In this document: piece by piece, positions 11,641 to 34,487 of the stretch
Layout: each line of letters begins with the position of its first letter
Position numbering within the stretch: the first letter of the stretch is position 1
Notes under the pieces: generated by a model
What the model was told of the DNA's origin: nothing
The model's input: the letters and a program-made list of their open reading frames with translations, nothing else
The model's database searches: none
NCBI GenBank assembly: GCA_046050145.1
Contig: JBJOQC010000040.1
Span: 1 to 45,162, forward strand
DNA length: 45,162 nucleotides
Source of the DNA: Candidatus Parcubacteria bacterium
GTDB lineage: Bacteria > Patescibacteriota > Minisyncoccia > Phycocordibacterales > CAYZPE01
Reading direction: 5' to 3'
Made by a program: the position numbers and the translations under genes

Positions 11641-11673
11641 TGCTTACCATTATCTCTTCTCAAAACTTTTTTG

Positions 11674-11705
11674 GCAAAAAAATACCCCCTCTGTTAGAGG
11701 GGGTA
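11674..11705 (-). terminator. Intrinsic terminator of the G+C-rich gene
   Basis: Minus-strand stem TACCCCCTC/GAGGGGGTA followed by a T-run (the reverse complement of the A-run at 11675-11682). Confidence 0.75.
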
Positions 11706-11750
11706 TGATCCCGGAGGATCACGAGTGCGGCAGAAAGGCCGCTGGCACCT

Positions 11751-12137
11751 TCACTCCACAATGGAGTGTCGCGGCCCTGCTTTCGCCTGGCCGAGGTTCG
11801 CCCACAGCAAGTGGCTGAGGGTGGTGGCGCAGTCGCGCTTCAAGTCGATGGCGGGCGTCGCAGTAGCGATGACGCCGATGCCGGTGTTGTCGAGCAGGCC
11901 GATGTTGTTGTGCTTATCAAGAATGAACACACGAGCCACGGGCGGGCCGAGGTCGATACTGCGACCGTTGCCGCCGAAGTTGCCCAGGGAAAGCGCCGGT
12001 TCGTTGAACGTGGCGCCGTCCTGATCGATGCTGATGCTGTTGTCGGCGAGTTGAGGGAAGCTGGAAGCTTCCACGGGCGGGCCGAGACTCAGCACGGAAA
12101 AGGTAGCGATGAGCATGAGAACGAAAATTCGTCGCAT
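11751..12137 (-). CDS. Secreted hypothetical protein encoded by a strongly G+C-rich gene
   Basis: AAGGAG lies 8 nt before ATG 12137. A signal-peptide-like N-terminus is present (MRRIFVLMLIATFSVLSLGPPVEA). Third-codon positions are G/C-rich in this frame. Its own terminator follows. Confidence 0.7.
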   Translation of the reverse strand: MRRIFVLMLIATFSVLSLGPPVEASSFPQLADNSISIDQDGATFNEPALSLGNFGGNGRSIDLGPPVARVFILDKHNNIGLLDNTGIGVIATATPAIDLKRDCATTLSHLLWANLGQAKAGPRHSIVE

Positions 12138-12224
12138 GAACAAGTCTCCTTGAGTGAGAAAGAACCGAACAAAGTATTTTGTCAGATGTCTCTTTTACAT
12201 TGTTATTACCGCTTAGGTATTACT

Positions 12225-12238
12225 GGATCACCTCCTTT
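12225..12238 (-). promoter_or_regulatory. 14-nt perfect complement of the canonical 16S rRNA 3' tail (AAAGGAGGUGAUCC) inside a long leader
   Basis: The plus strand reads GGATCACCTCCTTT and the minus-strand RNA reads AAAGGAGGTGATCC. No start codon lies at a usable distance. The real SD/ATG is about 90 nt further on. Confidence 0.5.
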
Positions 12239-12356
12239 ACGAGGCGATACATAACAGTGCCTTCACACACTACGAGTGTGCAAAGTAAGACGAACTGAAA
12301 CATCAAAACACTTCTGATGAGAAGTTATCACATTATAATTTTAATGTCAAGTCAAG

Positions 12357-12365
12357 TGTGGATAA
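12357..12365 (-). promoter_or_regulatory. Perfect DnaA-box consensus (TTATCCACA on the minus strand)
   Basis: The plus strand reads TGTGGATAA. The box sits just upstream of TTGACTTGACA and TATAAT hexamers on the minus strand. Confidence 0.5.
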
Positions 12366-12386
12366 GCTACTTTTCTCAACAATATT

Positions 12387-13400
12387 CTACCTCTTTGAAA
12401 TAACTGATTTTTTATATGTATCCAAATGTTCGAGTGCAATACCAGTCCCCTTCACTACACAATAAAAAGGATCCTTTGCGAGCTGAGCTTTCACACCTGT
12501 ACGACGGAGCACGAGCTCAGGAAGATTTCTAAGCTGTGAAGTTCCCCCTGTCATGATTATTCCTCGATCAATAATGTCAGATGCGAGCTCTGGTGGAGTT
12601 TCTTGAAGTACATCCTTAATAGCTTTTATCATTTCACGAAGTTCTTTTGTAATAGCTTTTACAACCTCATTTGTTTTGAGTTCAATTGAGCGAGGAAGTC
12701 CAGTCACAAAATCTCTCCCTTTTACAATCATAGAAAGTTCGTCTTCAATAGGGATCGCTGAACCTATTTTCATTTTTATATCCTCAGATGTTTTATCGCC
12801 AATCGCTAAGTTAAATGTTTTTTTAATATAGTCAGCAATTGCATAATCAATTTTATTCCCCGCAACCTTTACTGATTTTGAAGACACTATTCCTCCAAGC
12901 GAAATCACAGCAACATCAGTGGTTCCTCCCCCAATATCAACCACCATATGTCCTGCCGCTTCTTGAATAGGAATACCCGCACCAATTGCCGCGAGAATTG
13001 GCTCCTTCACCACATATGCATTTCGCGCCCCTGCTTTTATGGCAGCTTCTATCACCGCACGACGCTCAGTAGATGTAATACCAGCGGGTACCGAAACCAA
13101 TACATCAGGCTTCCAAAAACTCCATTTACCAAGAGCTTTTTCCATAAAATACCGGAGCATTGCTTCTGTCACCCGATAGTCTGCAATCACCCCATCTTTC
13201 ATTGGACGATACGCAATAATATGTTCGGGAGTGCGTCCAATCATTTGTTTTGCTTCAACACCAATTGCCAAAATTTTATTGTCCTCCTCAGACACAGCTA
13301 CAACAGAAGGCTCACAGAGAACCACACCTTTTCCAGGAACAAATACAAGTGTATTTGCAGTACCCAAATCAATACCAAGCTTTTTAGAAAACCATGCCAT
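12387..13400 (-). CDS. mreB: Second MreB-family actin homolog
   Basis: 337 aa. LGIDLGTANTLVF and VVDIGGGTTDVAVISLGG are present. It is a stand-alone gene away from mreCD. Confidence 0.9.
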   Translation of the reverse strand: MAWFSKKLGIDLGTANTLVFVPGKGVVLCEPSVVAVSEEDNKILAIGVEAKQMIGRTPEHIIAYRPMKDGVIADYRVTEAMLRYFMEKALGKWSFWKPDVLVSVPAGITSTERRAVIEAAIKAGARNAYVVKEPILAAIGAGIPIQEAAGHMVVDIGGGTTDVAVISLGGIVSSKSVKVAGNKIDYAIADYIKKTFNLAIGDKTSEDIKMKIGSAIPIEDELSMIVKGRDFVTGLPRSIELKTNEVVKAITKELREMIKAIKDVLQETPPELASDIIDRGIIMTGGTSQLRNLPELVLRRTGVKAQLAKDPFYCVVKGTGIALEHLDTYKKSVISKR

Positions 13401-13476
13401 GTGTGCACTTATAGTACGCCTTACAAAAAGGTTTTACAATTTCTAATCTTCTCTTTTAAAGTTTTAAATTTGTACT

Positions 13477-13505
13477 TTGAACTTACATAGCATATATGCT
13501 ATACT
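13477..13505 (+). promoter_or_regulatory. Promoter TTGAAC-N17-TATACT (TGC extended -10) of the HTH-murA gene
   Basis: TTGAAC at 13477-13482 and TGCTATACT at 13497-13505. Confidence 0.55.
13487..13502. promoter_or_regulatory. Perfect 16-bp palindrome ATAGCATATATGCTAT (candidate operator)
   Basis: The sequence is self-complementary over all 16 nt. It occupies the spacer and -10 of the promoter above. Confidence 0.5.
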
Positions 13506-13532
13506 TTTTTAACTACAATTTTAAACATATAT

Positions 13533-15047
13533 ATGGAAACAATAGATAAAAAACTGGCGCAGATTGGAAAGTTTATTAGTGAACTTCGTGAAGAGCGTGG
13601 ACTTACCCAAAGCGAGCTCGCAGAAAAAATAGGCACCACACAGAGCGCTATTGCTCGTATCGAAAAAGGTGAGCAAAACATCTCCACAGAAATGCTTGCA
13701 AAGATAAGTGGAGCTCTTCAACGTGATGTAGTTCAAATTGGAAATAAATCTTTAAACTTTAAAATTGAAGGTGGAAGAAAACTTTCTGGTTCCATTGAAG
13801 TAAAAAGCTCAAAGAATGCCGCTGTTGCACTTCTCTGTGCTTCCCTTTTGAATAAAGGAAAAACTATTCTTAAAAATATGCCTCGTATTGAAGAGGTGGC
13901 TCGTATTATCGAAGTACTCCAAAGTATCAACGTAAAAGTAAAATGGGTTGGAAACGATATTGAAATAGAAGCTCATAGTATTGATCTTAAAAATCTCGAC
14001 ATAGAAGCGGCAATAAAAACTCGAAGTATTATCATGTTTATTGGTCCGCTTATTCATCACGCAAAACAGTTTAGCCTTCCTCAAGCTGGTGGATGCAAAC
14101 TCGGCTCTCGTACAGTACGCCCTCACTTTTTCGCCCTTGAAAAGTTTGGTGTTGATATAGAAACCCTTACTAAGCAGTACAAAATTAAAAGCACAAAACT
14201 TACACCAGCTGAAGTGGTCCTCTATGAATCTGGAGATACCGTAACAGAAAACGCCCTCATGGCAGCGGCCCTTATTCCTGGTAAAACAGTTATTAAGTTT
14301 GCTTCAGCGAATTACCAAGTACAGGACGTATGCTTTTTTCTTCAAAAACTTGGGGTGGTGATAGAAGGAATCGGCACAACTACACTTACTGTAACCGGTG
14401 TTAAAGAAATAAATACAACAGTTACATATTTCTTAAGTGAAGATCCTATTGAAGCAATGTTTCTCATCGCAACAGCTATCCTTACAAAATCAGCAATCAC
14501 CATTACTCGTTGCCCCATCAACTTTCTTGAAATAGAACTTTTGAAACTCGAGAAGATGGGTTTCAAATATAAAATACTCAAAGAGTATAAATCACGTAAT
14601 GGAGAAACAAATCTTGTAGACATAAAAACACAACCCTCAAAGCTTATCGCTCTTGAAGAAAAAATTGAGTGCCGACCATATCCAGGATTAAATATCGATA
14701 ACCTTCCTTTCTTTGCTGTTATCGCAACACAAGCAGAAGGACAAACATTTATTCATGATTGGGTTTATGAAAAACGAGCAATCTACTATAAAGACCTTGA
14801 TAAGCTCGGAGCTGATACCATTCTCGCTGATCCACACCGCTTCTATGTAAACGGTCCGACAAAACTAAAAGCAGCAGAAGCAATTTGCCCACCAGCGCTT
14901 CGTCCTGCGGCAATCCTCCTTATAGGCATGCTTGGAGCAGAAGGAACTTCAAAACTTCGCAATGTCTACAGTATCAACCGTGGATACGAAGATTTAGCAA
15001 ATCGACTCAATGCAATTGGTGCAAAAATAGAGCTTTTACACGAATAA
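13533..15047 (+). CDS. murA: XRE-type helix-turn-helix domain fused to UDP-N-acetylglucosamine 1-carboxyvinyltransferase
   Basis: Residues 1-65 form an HTH (LTQSELAEKIGTTQSAIARIEKGEQNIS). The rest is a MurA/EPSP-synthase fold (KLSGSIEVKSSKNAAVALLCASLL...) with the active-site Cys context GGCKLGSRTVRPH. It is one uninterrupted 504-aa ORF. Confidence 0.85.
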   Translation: METIDKKLAQIGKFISELREERGLTQSELAEKIGTTQSAIARIEKGEQNISTEMLAKISGALQRDVVQIGNKSLNFKIEGGRKLSGSIEVKSSKNAAVALLCASLLNKGKTILKNMPRIEEVARIIEVLQSINVKVKWVGNDIEIEAHSIDLKNLDIEAAIKTRSIIMFIGPLIHHAKQFSLPQAGGCKLGSRTVRPHFFALEKFGVDIETLTKQYKIKSTKLTPAEVVLYESGDTVTENALMAAALIPGKTVIKFASANYQVQDVCFFLQKLGVVIEGIGTTTLTVTGVKEINTTVTYFLSEDPIEAMFLIATAILTKSAITITRCPINFLEIELLKLEKMGFKYKILKEYKSRNGETNLVDIKTQPSKLIALEEKIECRPYPGLNIDNLPFFAVIATQAEGQTFIHDWVYEKRAIYYKDLDKLGADTILADPHRFYVNGPTKLKAAEAICPPALRPAAILLIGMLGAEGTSKLRNVYSINRGYEDLANRLNAIGAKIELLHE

Positions 15048-19378: not shown

Positions 19379-19768
19379 TTATTTATTTTTTCTTCGAAAT
19401 GGATACGTTGCACCCTTAAGAATTGCCTTGACTAAGGCACCACCTCTTCGTACCAGACCTGCACGCTTTTTATTATGAGAAGAAATAGAACGAGCAATTT
19501 CATCCTTCACATCATCAAGCGCTGCGTTGAGAGAATCTTTTTCTGAGACAGCATACACATATTTACCAGCAATATGTAAATTCATTTCAGCCTTAAACAC
19601 ATCACCTGTCTTATGGTGCATTGTTGTTTTACCAACCTCAACATCACACATGGCACTTGAATCATTCGGCTCAACATACTTTTCAAGAAGATCGATCTTC
19701 TTTTGAACATACTCGCGAATTGAATCTGTTAATTCTATATTCGTCGCTTTTATGTTTGTTTTTATCAT
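19379..19768 (-). CDS. hpf: Ribosome hibernation promoting factor / RaiA family
   Basis: MIKTNIKATNIELTDSIREYVQKKIDLLEKY... is typical of the HPF/YfiA N-domain. The start is set at ATG 19768. Confidence 0.8.
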   Translation of the reverse strand: MIKTNIKATNIELTDSIREYVQKKIDLLEKYVEPNDSSAMCDVEVGKTTMHHKTGDVFKAEMNLHIAGKYVYAVSEKDSLNAALDDVKDEIARSISSHNKKRAGLVRRGGALVKAILKGATYPFRRKNK

Positions 19769-21234: not shown

Positions 21235-21389
21235 CTTCGACCCTTACAGGGTCAGTACCCCAATTGGATATTTTTTTTCGTAAACTCAAAAATATCTCAA
21301 TCGGGCTTCGAGTCCTAACGCAAGAGAAATTGTTCTCTTGCTCCACATGGAGCATACTTAAAAACGCTTCGCATTTTATAAGTACTTTG

Positions 21390-21698
21390 CTCCGGTGGTA
21401 GGACTCGAACCTACAACCCCCTCGTTACATCAACCCTTCTATTTCTAAAAGGAATGGACTATATCATCATCCCGAAGGATGTGAGGCGCTTCCCCTAAAT
21501 CATTTTTGAATGATCGGGTACTCCTCGCGGATAGTCTCTGAACCTTCTCTTACTTAAAAGTGAGAGCTTGGCTGCTGATTGCCCTTTCCAAAAATTGGAT
21601 GAGGGTTTCCAGTCAATTCACCTCATTTTTCAACTCAAATTACTTTGAGAAGCTGCAACAACTTACAGCGAGACGCTCTACCATTGAGCTACACCGGA
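21390..21698 (-). tRNA. tRNA-Asn(GUU) interrupted by a group I intron (exons 21698-21665 and 21427-21390)
   Basis: Spliced sequence, arm by arm: UCCGGUG-UA-GCUC-AAUGGUA-GAGC-G-UCUCG-CUGUUAA-CGAGG-GGGUU-GUAGG-UUCGAGU-CCUAC-CACCGGA-G. It forms a full cloverleaf with U1-A72 and G73 as in bacterial tRNA-Asn. No CCA is encoded. Confidence 0.88.
21428..21664 (-). ncRNA. Group I intron, 237 nt, no ORF
   Basis: In P1 the exon GCUGU pairs with intron GCAGC, giving U.G at the 5' splice site, and the intron ends in G. The core elements are P AAUUUUUGGAAAGGGC (21596-21581), Q AAUCAGCAGCCAAGC (21580-21566), R GGUUCAGAGACUA (21544-21532) and S AUGAUAUAGUCC (21467-21456). GACUA/UAGUC forms P7. Confidence 0.9.
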
Positions 21699-21738
21699 GC
21701 AAAATACTCATATATTTAAACCTCAAAGAACGAGTTTT

Positions 21739-32143: not shown

Positions 32144-32791
32144 TTAACATCCATTATCACCCCTTGGAGAAGTGCCTGCCATAGCAACACACGATGGCGT
32201 GCTTAGCCGGCGCAAAAGCCTGTACTTGTCAAGCGCTGAAAGGATCTTTTGAGTGACATCATCAGCTTCAAATTCTGCATTGATGTCATAGACCGTCCAT
32301 CCAACCGCTCTGAAGGCATCCAAAATTGCAGGGGATTCCCGATGATAGAACTGAAACCGTTCCCAAATCGCACGTGGAGTGTCGTCTGGCCGATTACGTT
32401 TCAATGCACGTTCCATTGCCTTACCATCCGGCAAAACCAAATGAAAAACAACCACATCACCACTCTCATCCCGTTCAGAGAGAAGATCGTTCAGCATCAA
32501 GAACTGGGGGTGATTTCGAGGAAATCCCTCGAGAATTCGAGGTCTTCCATAATCAAGGTGACGGACAGTGTCAAGCACAAGAGGTTCAACAACATCATCG
32601 GACAAAGGCTTGCCACTACGAATTGTTCCACCATGAACCGCATCGAATTGCGGATCTGATCCGCACCTTTCTCGACATAAATCTCCTGAACCAATAAGCC
32701 GGTGACCCAACCGCATGGCAAGTGCCTTGCCTTGAGTCCCCTTACCGCATCCTTGAATGCCCTCCAACAAAATCGTCACTGGTGATTCCAT
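32144..32791 (-). CDS. Adenylate kinase-like nucleoside monophosphate kinase (G+C-rich, divergent)
   Basis: GGGAGGTG SD lies before ATG 32791. The P-loop is GIQGCGKGTQG and ILEGFPRNHPQ matches the (I/L)LDGFPR motif. There is no LID insertion. The C-terminal tail is unrelated to Adk. Confidence 0.65.
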   Translation of the reverse strand: MESPVTILLEGIQGCGKGTQGKALAMRLGHRLIGSGDLCRERCGSDPQFDAVHGGTIRSGKPLSDDVVEPLVLDTVRHLDYGRPRILEGFPRNHPQFLMLNDLLSERDESGDVVVFHLVLPDGKAMERALKRNRPDDTPRAIWERFQFYHRESPAILDAFRAVGWTVYDINAEFEADDVTQKILSALDKYRLLRRLSTPSCVAMAGTSPRGDNGC

Positions 32792-32862: not shown

Positions 32863-32890
32863 ATTATCGCATATATGCTATTTTTTCAAG
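32863..32890 (-). promoter_or_regulatory. Promoter (C)TTGAA(A)-N15/16-GATAAT with TGC extended -10
   Basis: On the minus strand GATAAT lies at 32868-32863 preceded by TGC, and TTGAAA at 32889-32884. Confidence 0.45.
32866..32881. promoter_or_regulatory. 15/16 copy of the ATAGCATATATGCTAT palindrome, plus an extra half-site
   Basis: The plus strand reads ATCGCATATATGCTAT at 32866-32881. An extra AGCATATAT half-site lies at 32856-32864. The site occupies the promoter spacer, as at 13487-13502. Confidence 0.45.
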
Positions 32891-32972
32891 CTGTTAGGTT
32901 TTAACTATCGGCTTATAAAAAGCGTGTCCTTGTGGACACACTTTTTTCCTAACACCTGAAAGCTAATAGCTA

Positions 32973-34487
32973 TTAGCTTACTAGGTTCTTTCCTGTCATA
33001 ACCTTTGGTTTTTTTATACCCAACAATGCAAGAATTGTTGGTGCAATATCAGCAAGGGTTCCATTGTCTGAAGTAAATTTATAATCCTTATGAGTCAAGA
33101 TTGCAGGCACTGGATTTGTTGTATGAGCAGTGTGTTTATTACCAGTTTCCAAATCAAAGTTTACTTCTGCATTTCCATGATCTGCCGTTATAAAAGCAAC
33201 ACCTCCCGCTCGTTCAACAATCTCAATAACTCTTCGAAGCTGTGTATCCACCTCTTCAATCGCTTCAATAATAGCTGGCACATTTGCAGTGTGTCCCACC
33301 ATGTCAGCATTGGCGAAGTTTATAAAAATAAAATCAATACCCATATTTACATACTCGATCGCTTTTTCTGCAATAGCTTCTGCGCGCATCTTAGGCGCCA
33401 TGTCATGAGTAGGCACATCTTTGCGACTCGCCAAAAGTTCATGTATTTCTCCTGGGTATGGTTTCTCAACTCCCCCATTTAAAAAGTATGTAGCATGAGG
33501 AAACTTTTCTGTTTCTGCAATATGAGCCTGTGTCATCCCTGCCTCTGAAACTTCTTTCGCAATCGTCGTATCTATTGCAACAGGTGGAAATGCCACAAGA
33601 CATTTAAACTCTGGACTATATTCTGTAAGCGTCACAAAGCAGACATTATTTTTATTCACTTTTTCAAGAATCTTTTGTGTAAGCTGTCGCGCTCTATCTG
33701 CACGGAAGTTGAAGAAAAATACACCATCATTGTCTTCTATAGCACATCCTCGTCCGTCTATCGTATGACAAACCAAAGGCTCTAGATGCTCATCGAGCTT
33801 TCCTTCTTTATATAAAGAGTCAACAAATTTTGAAGGCTCAATGGTGCACACATTTCCTTTACACTCAAAAAGAGCTTGCTCAACTTTTGAAACTCTATCC
33901 CAATTATTATCTCTATCCATTGCATAGAAACGTCCTGAAACTGTCGCGATAAAACCTACCTTAATTTCTTTCAATACATCTTCCAGCTCTTTTAAATATT
34001 TAGAAGCACTTTGTGGAGCTGTGTCTCGCCCGTCAGTAAAAACATGGACAGCGATTCTTTTTACCCCAGCTTTTTCTCCAGCTCGAAGAAATGCAAAAAG
34101 GTGCTCACTATGACTATGTACTCCACCTCCACCTAAAAGCCCTTGAACATGAAGAACGGAATTGTGTTTTTTTACATGATCAAAAAGTGCCTGAAAAGCA
34201 GGATTCTTTTCATACTCTCCAGTTTTAATAGACTTACCAATACGTACAAGTTCGGTATCTGCAGGTTTTCCCGCTCCAATTGTTGTATGTCCCACTTCAC
34301 TGTTACCCATTTGTCCTTCAGGGAGACCTACAGCAAGACCAGATGCTTCAAGAAGTGTGTGAGAATAGGTCTTCCAGAGATAATTAAAAAAAGGAGTTTT
34401 TGCTTGTGCAATTGCATTATGTACAACATCTTCTCGATAACCCCACCCATCAAGAACAATTAACACAACTGGTTTTTTTGATTTCAT
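32973..34487 (-). CDS. gpmI: 2,3-bisphosphoglycerate-independent phosphoglycerate mutase
   Basis: KKPVVLIVLDGWG, GNSEVGHTTIGAG (catalytic Ser) and ITADHGNAE. The start is set at ATG 34487. Confidence 0.92.
   Translation of the reverse strand: MKSKKPVVLIVLDGWGYREDVVHNAIAQAKTPFFNYLWKTYSHTLLEASGLAVGLPEGQMGNSEVGHTTIGAGKPADTELVRIGKSIKTGEYEKNPAFQALFDHVKKHNSVLHVQGLLGGGGVHSHSEHLFAFLRAGEKAGVKRIAVHVFTDGRDTAPQSASKYLKELEDVLKEIKVGFIATVSGRFYAMDRDNNWDRVSKVEQALFECKGNVCTIEPSKFVDSLYKEGKLDEHLEPLVCHTIDGRGCAIEDNDGVFFFNFRADRARQLTQKILEKVNKNNVCFVTLTEYSPEFKCLVAFPPVAIDTTIAKEVSEAGMTQAHIAETEKFPHATYFLNGGVEKPYPGEIHELLASRKDVPTHDMAPKMRAEAIAEKAIEYVNMGIDFIFINFANADMVGHTANVPAIIEAIEEVDTQLRRVIEIVERAGGVAFITADHGNAEVNFDLETGNKHTAHTTNPVPAILTHKDYKFTSDNGTLADIAPTILALLGIKKPKVMTGKNLVS

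Follow-up and report, generated by a model that had tools for sequence, protein, structure and literature searches.

A MurA-Type Protein Fused to an Antitoxin-Type Helix-Turn-Helix Domain and Its Probable Autoregulation through a Conserved Promoter Palindrome in Parcubacteria and Actinomycetes

The HTH-murA Locus

The window analyzed here, a stretch of 45,162 nt of DNA from a Candidatus Parcubacteria bacterium, contains a gene, HTH-murA, whose product (protein database entry RJA61_527) joins an XRE-type helix-turn-helix (HTH) domain to MurA. The latter is the enzyme of the first committed step of peptidoglycan synthesis and the target of fosfomycin. The gene and the divergent mreB share a 132-nt intergenic region, and a palindrome lies within the HTH-murA promoter (Table 1). 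A sequence-only reading of this DNA had proposed that one uninterrupted open reading frame (ORF) encodes both domains, that the palindrome is a repressor operator, and that the protein is both an enzyme and its own transcription factor. We followed up these proposals with profile searches, structure prediction, and comparison of related loci.

Table 1. Positions of the features discussed, in coordinates of the window.
Feature	Position	Strand	Remarks
-35 hexamer TTGAAC	13477..13482	+	Promoter scan; 17-nt spacer to TATACT
18-bp dyad operator CATAGCATATATGCTATA	13486..13503	.	Position weight matrix score 27.8 bits; consensus TATAGCATATATGCTATA
Perfect 16-bp core ATAGCATATATGCTAT	13487-13502	.	Self-complementary
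Extended -10 TGcTATACT	13497..13505	+	Promoter scan; overlaps right operator arm
HTH-MurA gene	13533..15047	+	504 aa plus stop; single unbroken ORF
XRE/Cro-C1 HTH domain	13554..13727	+	aa 8-65; Pfam HTH_3, model helices
Recognition helix TTQSAIARIE	13635-13664	+	aa 35-44
Short linker VQIGNKSLNF	13728..13757	+	aa 66-75
MurA (enolpyruvyl transferase) domain	13758..15044	+	aa 76-504
Cys188 codon	14094-14096	+	Aligned to E. coli Cys115
mreB	12387..13400	-	Pfam MreB_Mbl, E 9e-136; divergent from HTH-murA
Second operator-like site TATCGCATATATGCTATT	32865-32882	.	Position weight matrix score 23.9 bits

The single 504-aa reading frame was borne out, and both domains proved real in Pfam searches, which matched HTH_3 (PF01381) at aa 15-65 (E 1.3e-16) and EPSP_synthase (PF00275) at aa 79-491 (E 2.9e-47). 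The protein scored above the cutoff of the NCBIfam MurA subfamily NF006873 (335.6 bits vs. 297) and below that of NF009470 (232 vs. 552), and the NCBIfam antitoxin models that matched the N-terminal domain did so with scores under their cutoffs. The closest solved structures were MurAs (Listeria 3R38, E 1e-53). In the AlphaFold2 model (mean predicted local distance difference test score, pLDDT, 87; predicted template modeling score, pTM, 0.80), the HTH was formed by four helices (residues 6-21, 26-33, 37-44, and 52-61), and the linker region at aa 62-72 had low confidence, with pLDDT <50 at aa 67-71. Foldseek superposed the MurA fold on 5UJS and 1UAE with a template modeling (TM) score of 0.92, and the model gave TM values of 0.87-0.92 to about 45 MurA structures, i.e., to the two-domain inside-out alpha/beta-barrel of the EPSP-synthase fold. 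Proteins of this kind are catalogued either as 'UDP-N-acetylglucosamine 1-carboxyvinyltransferase' or as 'helix-turn-helix domain-containing protein'.

Next, the catalytic residues were compared with those of E. coli MurA, using a reference sequence identical to 1UAE. The active-site loop GGCKLGSRTVRPH spans residues 186-198, and its Cys188 aligned with E. coli Cys115, in agreement with the earlier statement that the context of the active-site Cys is retained. The equivalents of K22, N23, R91, C115, R120, H125, D305, R331, R371, and R397 were all kept in the window protein and were invariant in its clade; R371 was assigned from the HMMER alignment, as MAFFT moves this segment by one residue.

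Distribution of the Fusion and Conservation of the Palindrome

When each GTDB species was represented by a single genome, the scan gave at least 600 matched stretches, and relatives of the window protein were encoded in 577 of the 600 listed, i.e., in at least 577. The operator counts given below refer to the best 80 loci of these relatives (protein identity 63-89%), plus the window. The HTH was fused in frame in 79 of the best 80 loci, and both domains were found in all of the top 120 database homologues (at least 120). Misassembly or a frameshift between the domains is therefore excluded, because the fusion recurs in hundreds of independent genomes: the unbroken architecture was seen in at least 120 protein clusters, in 79/80 genomes that each represent one species, and in completed chromosomes of actinomycetes. 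The fusion is of ancient origin and has a broad distribution, occurring in bacteria of the Candidate Phyla Radiation (CPR) and also in actinomycetes. Among the 120 homologues, Q37, S38, A41, R42, E44, G46, Q48, and N49 were invariant; mean pairwise identity was 64.5% in the HTH, 81% in the recognition helix (aa 33-50), and 72.7% in the MurA domain. Divergent mreB was found upstream in 56 of the best 80 loci, and priA followed the gene in 43.

The promoter scan recovered the promoter proposed by the sequence-only reading, TTGAAC-N17-TATACT at 13477-13505, with a TG-extended -10. The same reading had pointed to a perfect 16-bp palindrome within it; this is indeed perfect and lies between the -35 and over the -10, but its perfection is statistically unremarkable, and the conserved unit is 18 bp long. 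Three perfect palindromes of at least 16 bp were observed in the window vs. 0.95 expected, and at least one occurred in 60% of Markov shuffles. The perfection of the 16-mer is thus no evidence, as such palindromes are expected about once per window. Judged by its relatives, on the other hand, the palindrome is beyond chance by conservation. The 18-mer was found with up to 4 mismatches and within 200 nt upstream of the start codon in 81/81 sequences (13 perfect copies and 23 with one mismatch), and the remaining ~674 kb of the ~690 kb scanned contained nine matches, eight of them at 4 mismatches. Moreover, when a position weight matrix was built from the 80 sites, only two positions of the window exceeded every shuffle (maximum 18.7 bits), namely the murA operator and the second site listed in Table 1. 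The latter is on the minus strand in a -35/operator/-10 layout like that of the murA promoter, TTGAAA-N-AATAGCATATATGCGATAAT, with a GATAAT -10; it lies ~75 nt upstream of an adenylate-kinase-family gene (32144..32791, minus strand) and downstream of the iPGM gene, and it is a candidate for a second regulon member.

The operator flanks carried nearly no information, except for a T at +2 after the site (1.7 bits). As this T completes TATAnT, the right arm doubles as the extended -10 (TGnTATAnT). Within the spacer, the left arm was conserved to the same degree as the right arm in the 80 loci, and a weak -35 TTG was seen 3-4 nt to its left. The distance from operator to start codon is 29 nt in the window, and in many loci only 8-12 nt separate the operator from the ATG, a spacing that implies leaderless mRNAs.

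Two readings without a DNA-binding protein have to be weighed against these data. In the first, the conserved sequence would be a promoter only, either the extended -10 or overlapping divergent mreB and murA promoters, with incidental symmetry; the coincidence of the right arm with TGnTATAnT, the divergent mreB of most loci, and the fact that a perfect 16-mer is not rare by chance all favor it. We regard it as very unlikely, since the left arm is equally conserved in the spacer, where sigma-70-type promoters lack sequence constraint, the mirror-image -10 is incomplete on the other strand, and the flanks hold only 0.2-0.4 bits. In addition, the dyad is also present in actinomycete DNA of 70-75% GC with a TAnnnT -10 and before toxin-antitoxin operons in unrelated contexts (see below), and just two sites were found among the promoters of the 45-kb window. 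A divergent mreB promoter was also considered and rejected, because the promoter scan gave no minus-strand match in the mreB-murA intergenic region and the mirror -10 is not conserved. In the second reading, the palindrome would act as an RNA hairpin of the 5' leader, as an attenuator or stability element. Its self-complementarity suits this idea, and symmetric changes would keep the pairing. Even so, it is the least probable of the readings considered: the palindrome overlaps the -10 and, where the spacing is 8-12 nt, ends upstream of the likely leaderless transcription start; the variants G5/A14 and G5/G14, which do not pair, occur; and Rfam gave no match on 13300-13700 at E up to 1.

Co-Variation of Recognition Helix and Operator, and the Actinomycete Loci

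To a large extent, the form of the operator followed the sequence of the HTH encoded next to it. Operators with G5/C14 went with TTQS (Thr36) in 38/39 loci and those with T5/A14 went with TSQS (Ser36) in 18/18 loci (Fisher 6e-14, phylogeny uncorrected); the TT and TS assignments were taken from the alignment to a hidden Markov model (HMM). TSQS was scattered over several distinct branches when the tree was based on the MurA domain alone. Asymmetric operators (G5/A14 and G5/G14) also exist.

An exhaustive search of 1.8 billion cluster representatives then detected the fusion in Nonomuraea, at 56% identity to the window protein, and a further search that started from the Nonomuraea protein showed it in Streptomyces, Streptacidiphilus, Actinacidiphila, Marinactinospora, Thermoactinospora, and Peterkaempfera, with 86-96% identity to the Nonomuraea query. 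The actinomycete proteins carry TSQS, and therefore the rule derived from the CPR loci predicts a T5/A14 operator. In agreement, xATCTCAnATnTGAGATA, which is of the T5/A14 type, was found at -29 or -30 of the start codon in 6/6 actinomycete loci, all of which lie in DNA of 70-75% GC; the operator form for the HTH-MurA of Streptomyces iranensis or Nonomuraea is CATCTCATATGTGAGATA. Once again, the operator overlaps a -10 (TAnnnT), which is placed about 7-8 nt before the start. This result suggested that the palindrome had been correctly placed as a repressor operator, being a conserved dyad that overlaps the -10 of its own promoter and co-varies with the recognition helix. The proposal that the enzyme is also its own transcription factor likewise gained support, as the conserved operator, the co-variation, and the out-of-sample prediction in actinomycetes all argue for autoregulation.

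Two MurA-like places were found on one Nonomuraea chromosome record, and the actinomycete HTH-MurA is apparently an extra MurA copy. A phage-type integrase gene adjoins HTH-murA in 2/5 actinomycete genera: in Nonomuraea (L201, 7595-8986) and Thermoactinospora (L206, 5513-6882), the gene is closely followed by those for the integrase and a small HTH_31 protein. Together with the identity of 86-96% across actinomycete families, the integrase neighbors give a hint of horizontal spread. An origin from a plasmid or mobile element was rejected, as the matches of a tblastn search of plasmids were limited to actinomycete records of chromosome size and to ordinary MurAs. Because HTH-MurA and its operator are present in cultured, tractable Streptomyces and Nonomuraea, the hypothesis can be tested without culturing CPR bacteria, and the rule that pairs Thr/Ser36 with G/T5 offers a ready-made test of specificity.

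The Same Palindrome at Toxin-Antitoxin Operons

A scan of metagenome contigs for the exact palindrome gave at least 120 loci (L081-L200), and HTH-murA was present in only about nine of the 120 listed. HTH genes at these loci were detected with an HMM built solely from residues 8-70 of HTH-MurA, and in at least 76 of the 120, an HTH was encoded by one of the first two genes oriented away from the palindrome. Most of these were HTH_3 antitoxin-like proteins of 93-101 aa, e.g., ...GTTQSAVARIEQGKQNLT...LEIELVR, and in at least 25 listed loci, the antitoxin-like gene followed one for a toxin of the Gp49 family (PF05973, HigB/RelE-like). Stand-alone HTH proteins of 93-101 aa were also fronted by the exact palindrome TATAGCATATATGCTATA. 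T-S-Q-S (Ser36) occurred in none of the G5/C14-associated metagenome HTHs among the matches listed.

Like the antitoxins of the Gp49 operons, HTH-MurA has the recognition helix GT[TK]QS[AV][IV][AS]R[IL]E.G..N and the identical 18-bp promoter palindrome; unlike them, it has no N-terminal antitoxin extension, its gene has no adjacent toxin, and its C-terminus continues into a 430-aa enzyme. A conserved segment, DIVxVS, follows the HTH at the position of the C-terminal strand of the antitoxins, and the linker segment may be homologous, by position, to that strand (LEIELVR, VKIELQ). Since both the DNA and the helix are shared with loci elsewhere, the N-terminal domain would be an antitoxin-type HTH that brought its operator along. 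By descent, and as far as sequence comparison tells, HTH-MurA is a divergent MurA C-terminal domain with an antitoxin-type XRE N-terminal domain. A toxin-antitoxin reading of the window gene itself was rejected, because there is no adjacent toxin and its neighbors are mreB and the genes for a PEGA-domain protein and PriA; in the window, neither a toxin gene nor a free-standing HTH gene of the HTH-MurA type adjoins murA.

These findings raise the alternative that the palindrome is bound by a separate, free-standing XRE protein, e.g., an antitoxin, and that the HTH fused to MurA does something else. It draws support from the free-standing antitoxins with a near-identical helix and an identical palindrome that are common in metagenomes. 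It seems improbable to us, as the type of operator changes with residue 36 of the HTH that is encoded in cis, both in CPR bacteria and in actinomycetes, the operator is found at the HTH-MurA gene in every fusion-bearing lineage examined, the left half-site has decayed in a natural variant that lost the fused HTH (L047, see below), and the window has no free-standing HTH gene of this type beside murA. Binding by the fused HTH is the reading that we retain; four independent lines favor it, namely the conserved recognition helix, the co-variation with the operator, the prediction that held in actinomycetes, and the pairing of this DNA with this helix at other loci.

Some exact operators were found in other settings, at a distance of 9-86 nt before the genes of an HtpX/M48-like protease (L091), a NUDIX hydrolase (L149/L173), a histidine-phosphatase-family protein (L096), and a DEAD-box helicase (L174); these copies could be chance matches or regulon members. 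In the full-text literature, outside which most subscription journals fall, we found no paper containing the palindrome sequence.

Natural Variants and the Status of the Enzyme Domain

One member nested in the fusion clade (L047) encodes a 441-aa MurA without the HTH, at the same position between mreB and priA. In its 31-nt intergenic region, the extended -10 TATGCTATAGT is kept and the left half-site has decayed to AATACGGTA. This suggested that the enzyme domain can stand alone and that the left arm is required only in combination with the HTH.

The opposite loss was observed in relatives of 500-511 aa that are 36-44% identical to the window protein. They retain the HTH (TSQSAVARIEKGEQNLT) and have lost R91, C115, R120, R371, and R397; we refer to them as dead-enzyme forms. 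Their genes lie inside mur clusters in 5/5 loci (L207-L211), divergent from murA-murB or murD-ligase-ligase-murA operons and followed by ddl and/or murF-like ligase genes. An operator was present directly upstream of the regulator gene in all five loci; it reads TATATCATA(C/T)A(C/T)GATATA or a near variant in four of them and TATAACTTATATGTTATA in L208, and it is placed inside a divergent gap of 25-71 nt or abuts that gap (L208, L211). The murA beside these regulators belongs to another lineage (432-450 aa, 21-27% identical), and a recent duplication was therefore rejected as the source of the dead-enzyme forms. This HTH-less MurA is itself unusual: the equivalents of K22, N23, R91, C115, R120, D305, and R397 are kept, but positions 369-371 are Gly, Ile, and Gln, and position 331 is Gly. 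In a further locus (L169, 1955-1990), an exact operator, TATAAT, and 7 nt stand directly in front of murC, which comes behind murD and an ORF of 148 aa. This 2.3-kb contig carries no HTH gene, and its murC looks like a target acted on in trans. The dead-enzyme loci and L169 tie the module of HTH plus MurA fold to the transcription of peptidoglycan-precursor genes, and the conserved unit points to an undescribed control of these genes.

Collectively, we assign a probability of roughly 0.7 to the reading that HTH-MurA is bifunctional, i.e., a MurA that would also be an autorepressor, or 'trigger enzyme'. Of its parts, autoregulation is well supported computationally and appears highly probable, and competence of the domain as an enolpyruvyl transferase is likely from its residues. 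The sequence-only reading is largely borne out, with HTH-MurA as a probable trigger enzyme based on MurA that occurs widely among CPR bacteria and also in actinomycetes that have been cultured. Several points weigh against this reading. The MurA domain is divergent, with 28% identity to E. coli MurA, and its score with the TIGR01072 MurA equivalog model is below the cutoff (325 vs. 392.7). Asp369 is replaced in an invariant PPALRP motif, by Ala in the HMMER alignment, with Leu370 retained, and the S162-V163-G164 segment is G-D-T in the window protein. The search that found no second MurA-like ORF covered the 45-kb window, which is part of the genome. The AlphaFold2 model is that of a monomer and is silent on dimerization and on contacts between HTH and MurA. 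Finally, the support for DNA binding is wholly comparative, and the co-variation is partly confounded by phylogeny. Catalysis is therefore likely rather than proven, given the low identity, the sub-cutoff equivalog score, and the changes at Asp369 and S162-G164. The earlier description of a full-length MurA held for the fold and the main catalytic residues, but not at Asp369 or against the equivalog cutoff.

The same facts bear on the alternative that the MurA-like domain is no longer an enzyme but only a ligand-sensing or dimerizing partner, with the real MurA elsewhere in the genome. The sub-cutoff score and the missing Asp369 would fit it, and dead-enzyme versions do exist in relatives, beside a separate MurA of another lineage. 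It is nevertheless unlikely, although of the alternatives considered here it is the most plausible. The residues lost in the dead forms are all invariant in the clade of the window protein, the HTH-less orthologue between mreB and priA (L047) indicates that the domain is needed for its own sake, and no second MurA-like ORF was found within the window. As for Asp369, this residue and Leu370 have been described as mediating the interaction with fosfomycin, and substitutions of Asp369 as affecting this interaction rather than abolishing function (PMC4062475); the substitution therefore suggests a changed sensitivity to the inhibitor and not a dead enzyme. We thus keep to the bifunctional reading, in which HTH-MurA is probably the working MurA of this small-genome Parcubacteria organism.

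Proposed Mechanism and Relation to Known Systems

In the model that we propose, the N-terminal XRE-type HTH would descend from the antitoxin of a toxin-antitoxin system, and two copies of it would sit on the two half-sites of the 18-bp dyad TATAGCATATATGCTATA, with the DIVxVS segment and/or the MurA domain as a possible dimer contact. Because the operator fills the spacer and overlaps the extended -10, binding should block RNA polymerase; the bound protein would thus occlude the polymerase and give negative autoregulation, repression being the expected outcome rather than activation. The state of the MurA domain (open or closed; with UDP-N-acetylglucosamine (UDP-GlcNAc), UDP-N-acetylmuramic acid (UDP-MurNAc), phosphoenolpyruvate (PEP), or a covalent inhibitor) may in turn alter the affinity for DNA, in which case murA, together with other mur genes in some lineages, would be expressed according to precursor status. 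A coupling of the ligand state to DNA binding is a tentative part of the model, with indirect support only from the dead-enzyme relatives, in which the MurA fold is retained as partner of the HTH and which are located at mur-cluster promoters. Also tentative is the specific form of this coupling in which the MurA fold would be an allosteric sensor, and a UDP-sugar, PEP, or modification of Cys188 (e.g., by fosfomycin) would switch the HTH on or off the operator. If this form is true, MurA would directly determine how much murA is transcribed, and in certain lineages the same would hold for murB, murC, murF, and ddl; the module would be ancient or horizontally spread, common to CPR bacteria and Actinomycetota; it would have decayed repeatedly into pseudo-enzyme regulators of mur clusters; and the actinomycete copy could both sense MurA inhibitors, by way of their own target, and serve in resistance to them.

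Several proteins combine a DNA-binding domain with an enzyme. BirA is a biotin ligase with a winged HTH; PutA carries a ribbon-helix-helix domain and proline dehydrogenase; and NadR joins an XRE-type HTH to NMN adenylyltransferase/ribosylnicotinamide kinase. HTH-MurA is like them in having an N-terminal DNA-binding domain and a pathway enzyme in one polypeptide and an operator at the promoter of its own or of pathway genes (81/81 CPR and 6/6 actinomycete sequences). The concept behind these proteins, that the ligand state of the enzyme sets DNA binding, is one that we infer for HTH-MurA. Unlike in these systems, the enzyme is MurA, the HTH is derived from an antitoxin, and dead-enzyme descendants appear to have become dedicated regulators of mur clusters.

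Compared with canonical MurA (E. coli/E. cloacae, 1UAE), HTH-MurA shares the fold (TM 0.92), the Cys115 loop, and the equivalents of the main catalytic residues, and differs in its 75 N-terminal residues of HTH plus linker. MurA is controlled by ClpCP/ReoM-ReoY-PrkA proteolysis in Firmicutes, by CwlM activation in mycobacteria, and by UDP-MurNAc feedback (the 'dormant complex'). As in these cases, the first committed step would be adjusted to the demand for cell wall; but the known controls act post-translationally, via partners or small molecules, whereas in HTH-MurA the enzyme has a DNA-binding domain of its own, directed at the promoter of its gene. To our knowledge, little is understood of how the genes for the cytoplasmic steps of peptidoglycan synthesis are controlled at the level of transcription, the control known for MurA being post-translational. 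MurA closes on UDP-GlcNAc and binds UDP-MurNAc tightly, and the binding of UDP-MurNAc provides a precedent for product sensing by the MurA fold; 3SWD, an example of the dormant complex, and 3SU9 were among the structure matches. We found no published account of an HTH-MurA fusion, of the operator, or of a regulatory role in the full-text literature searched, which is an incomplete collection, and an earlier description is therefore possible.

CPR bacteria (Patescibacteria) have tiny genomes and few regulators. For them, an enzyme that senses the state of its pathway and acts on its own promoter would be a fitting, compact homeostat of the cell-wall precursor supply. Taken in order, the antitoxin HTH, its fusion to an enzyme, and the dead-enzyme regulator would illustrate how a metabolic enzyme can first be recruited and later be kept only as a sensor domain. 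If MurA does report on its own inhibition, this could also be relevant to resistance and to tools for inducible expression.

Other Features of the Window

Two further perfect palindromes were observed in the window. One of 20 bp, AAGCTAATAGCTATTAGCTT, at 32960-32979, overlaps the stop end of the iPGM gene, and one of 18 bp, AAGAAGATCGATCTTCTT, is placed at 19685-19702. A gap of ~730 nt (11650-12380) between a DNA polymerase III delta'-like gene and mreB contains only overlapping ORFs on both strands, with no gathering-level Rfam match and no tRNA within it. Finally, a tRNA gene on the minus strand (21388-21700) is interrupted by a group I intron (Rfam RF00028, 95.7 bits, 21435-21674). The unspliced gene was missed by ARAGORN; after splicing by hand at the only junction compatible with the group I rule (5' exon ending in U, intron ending in G), a tRNA-Asn(GUU) was called.

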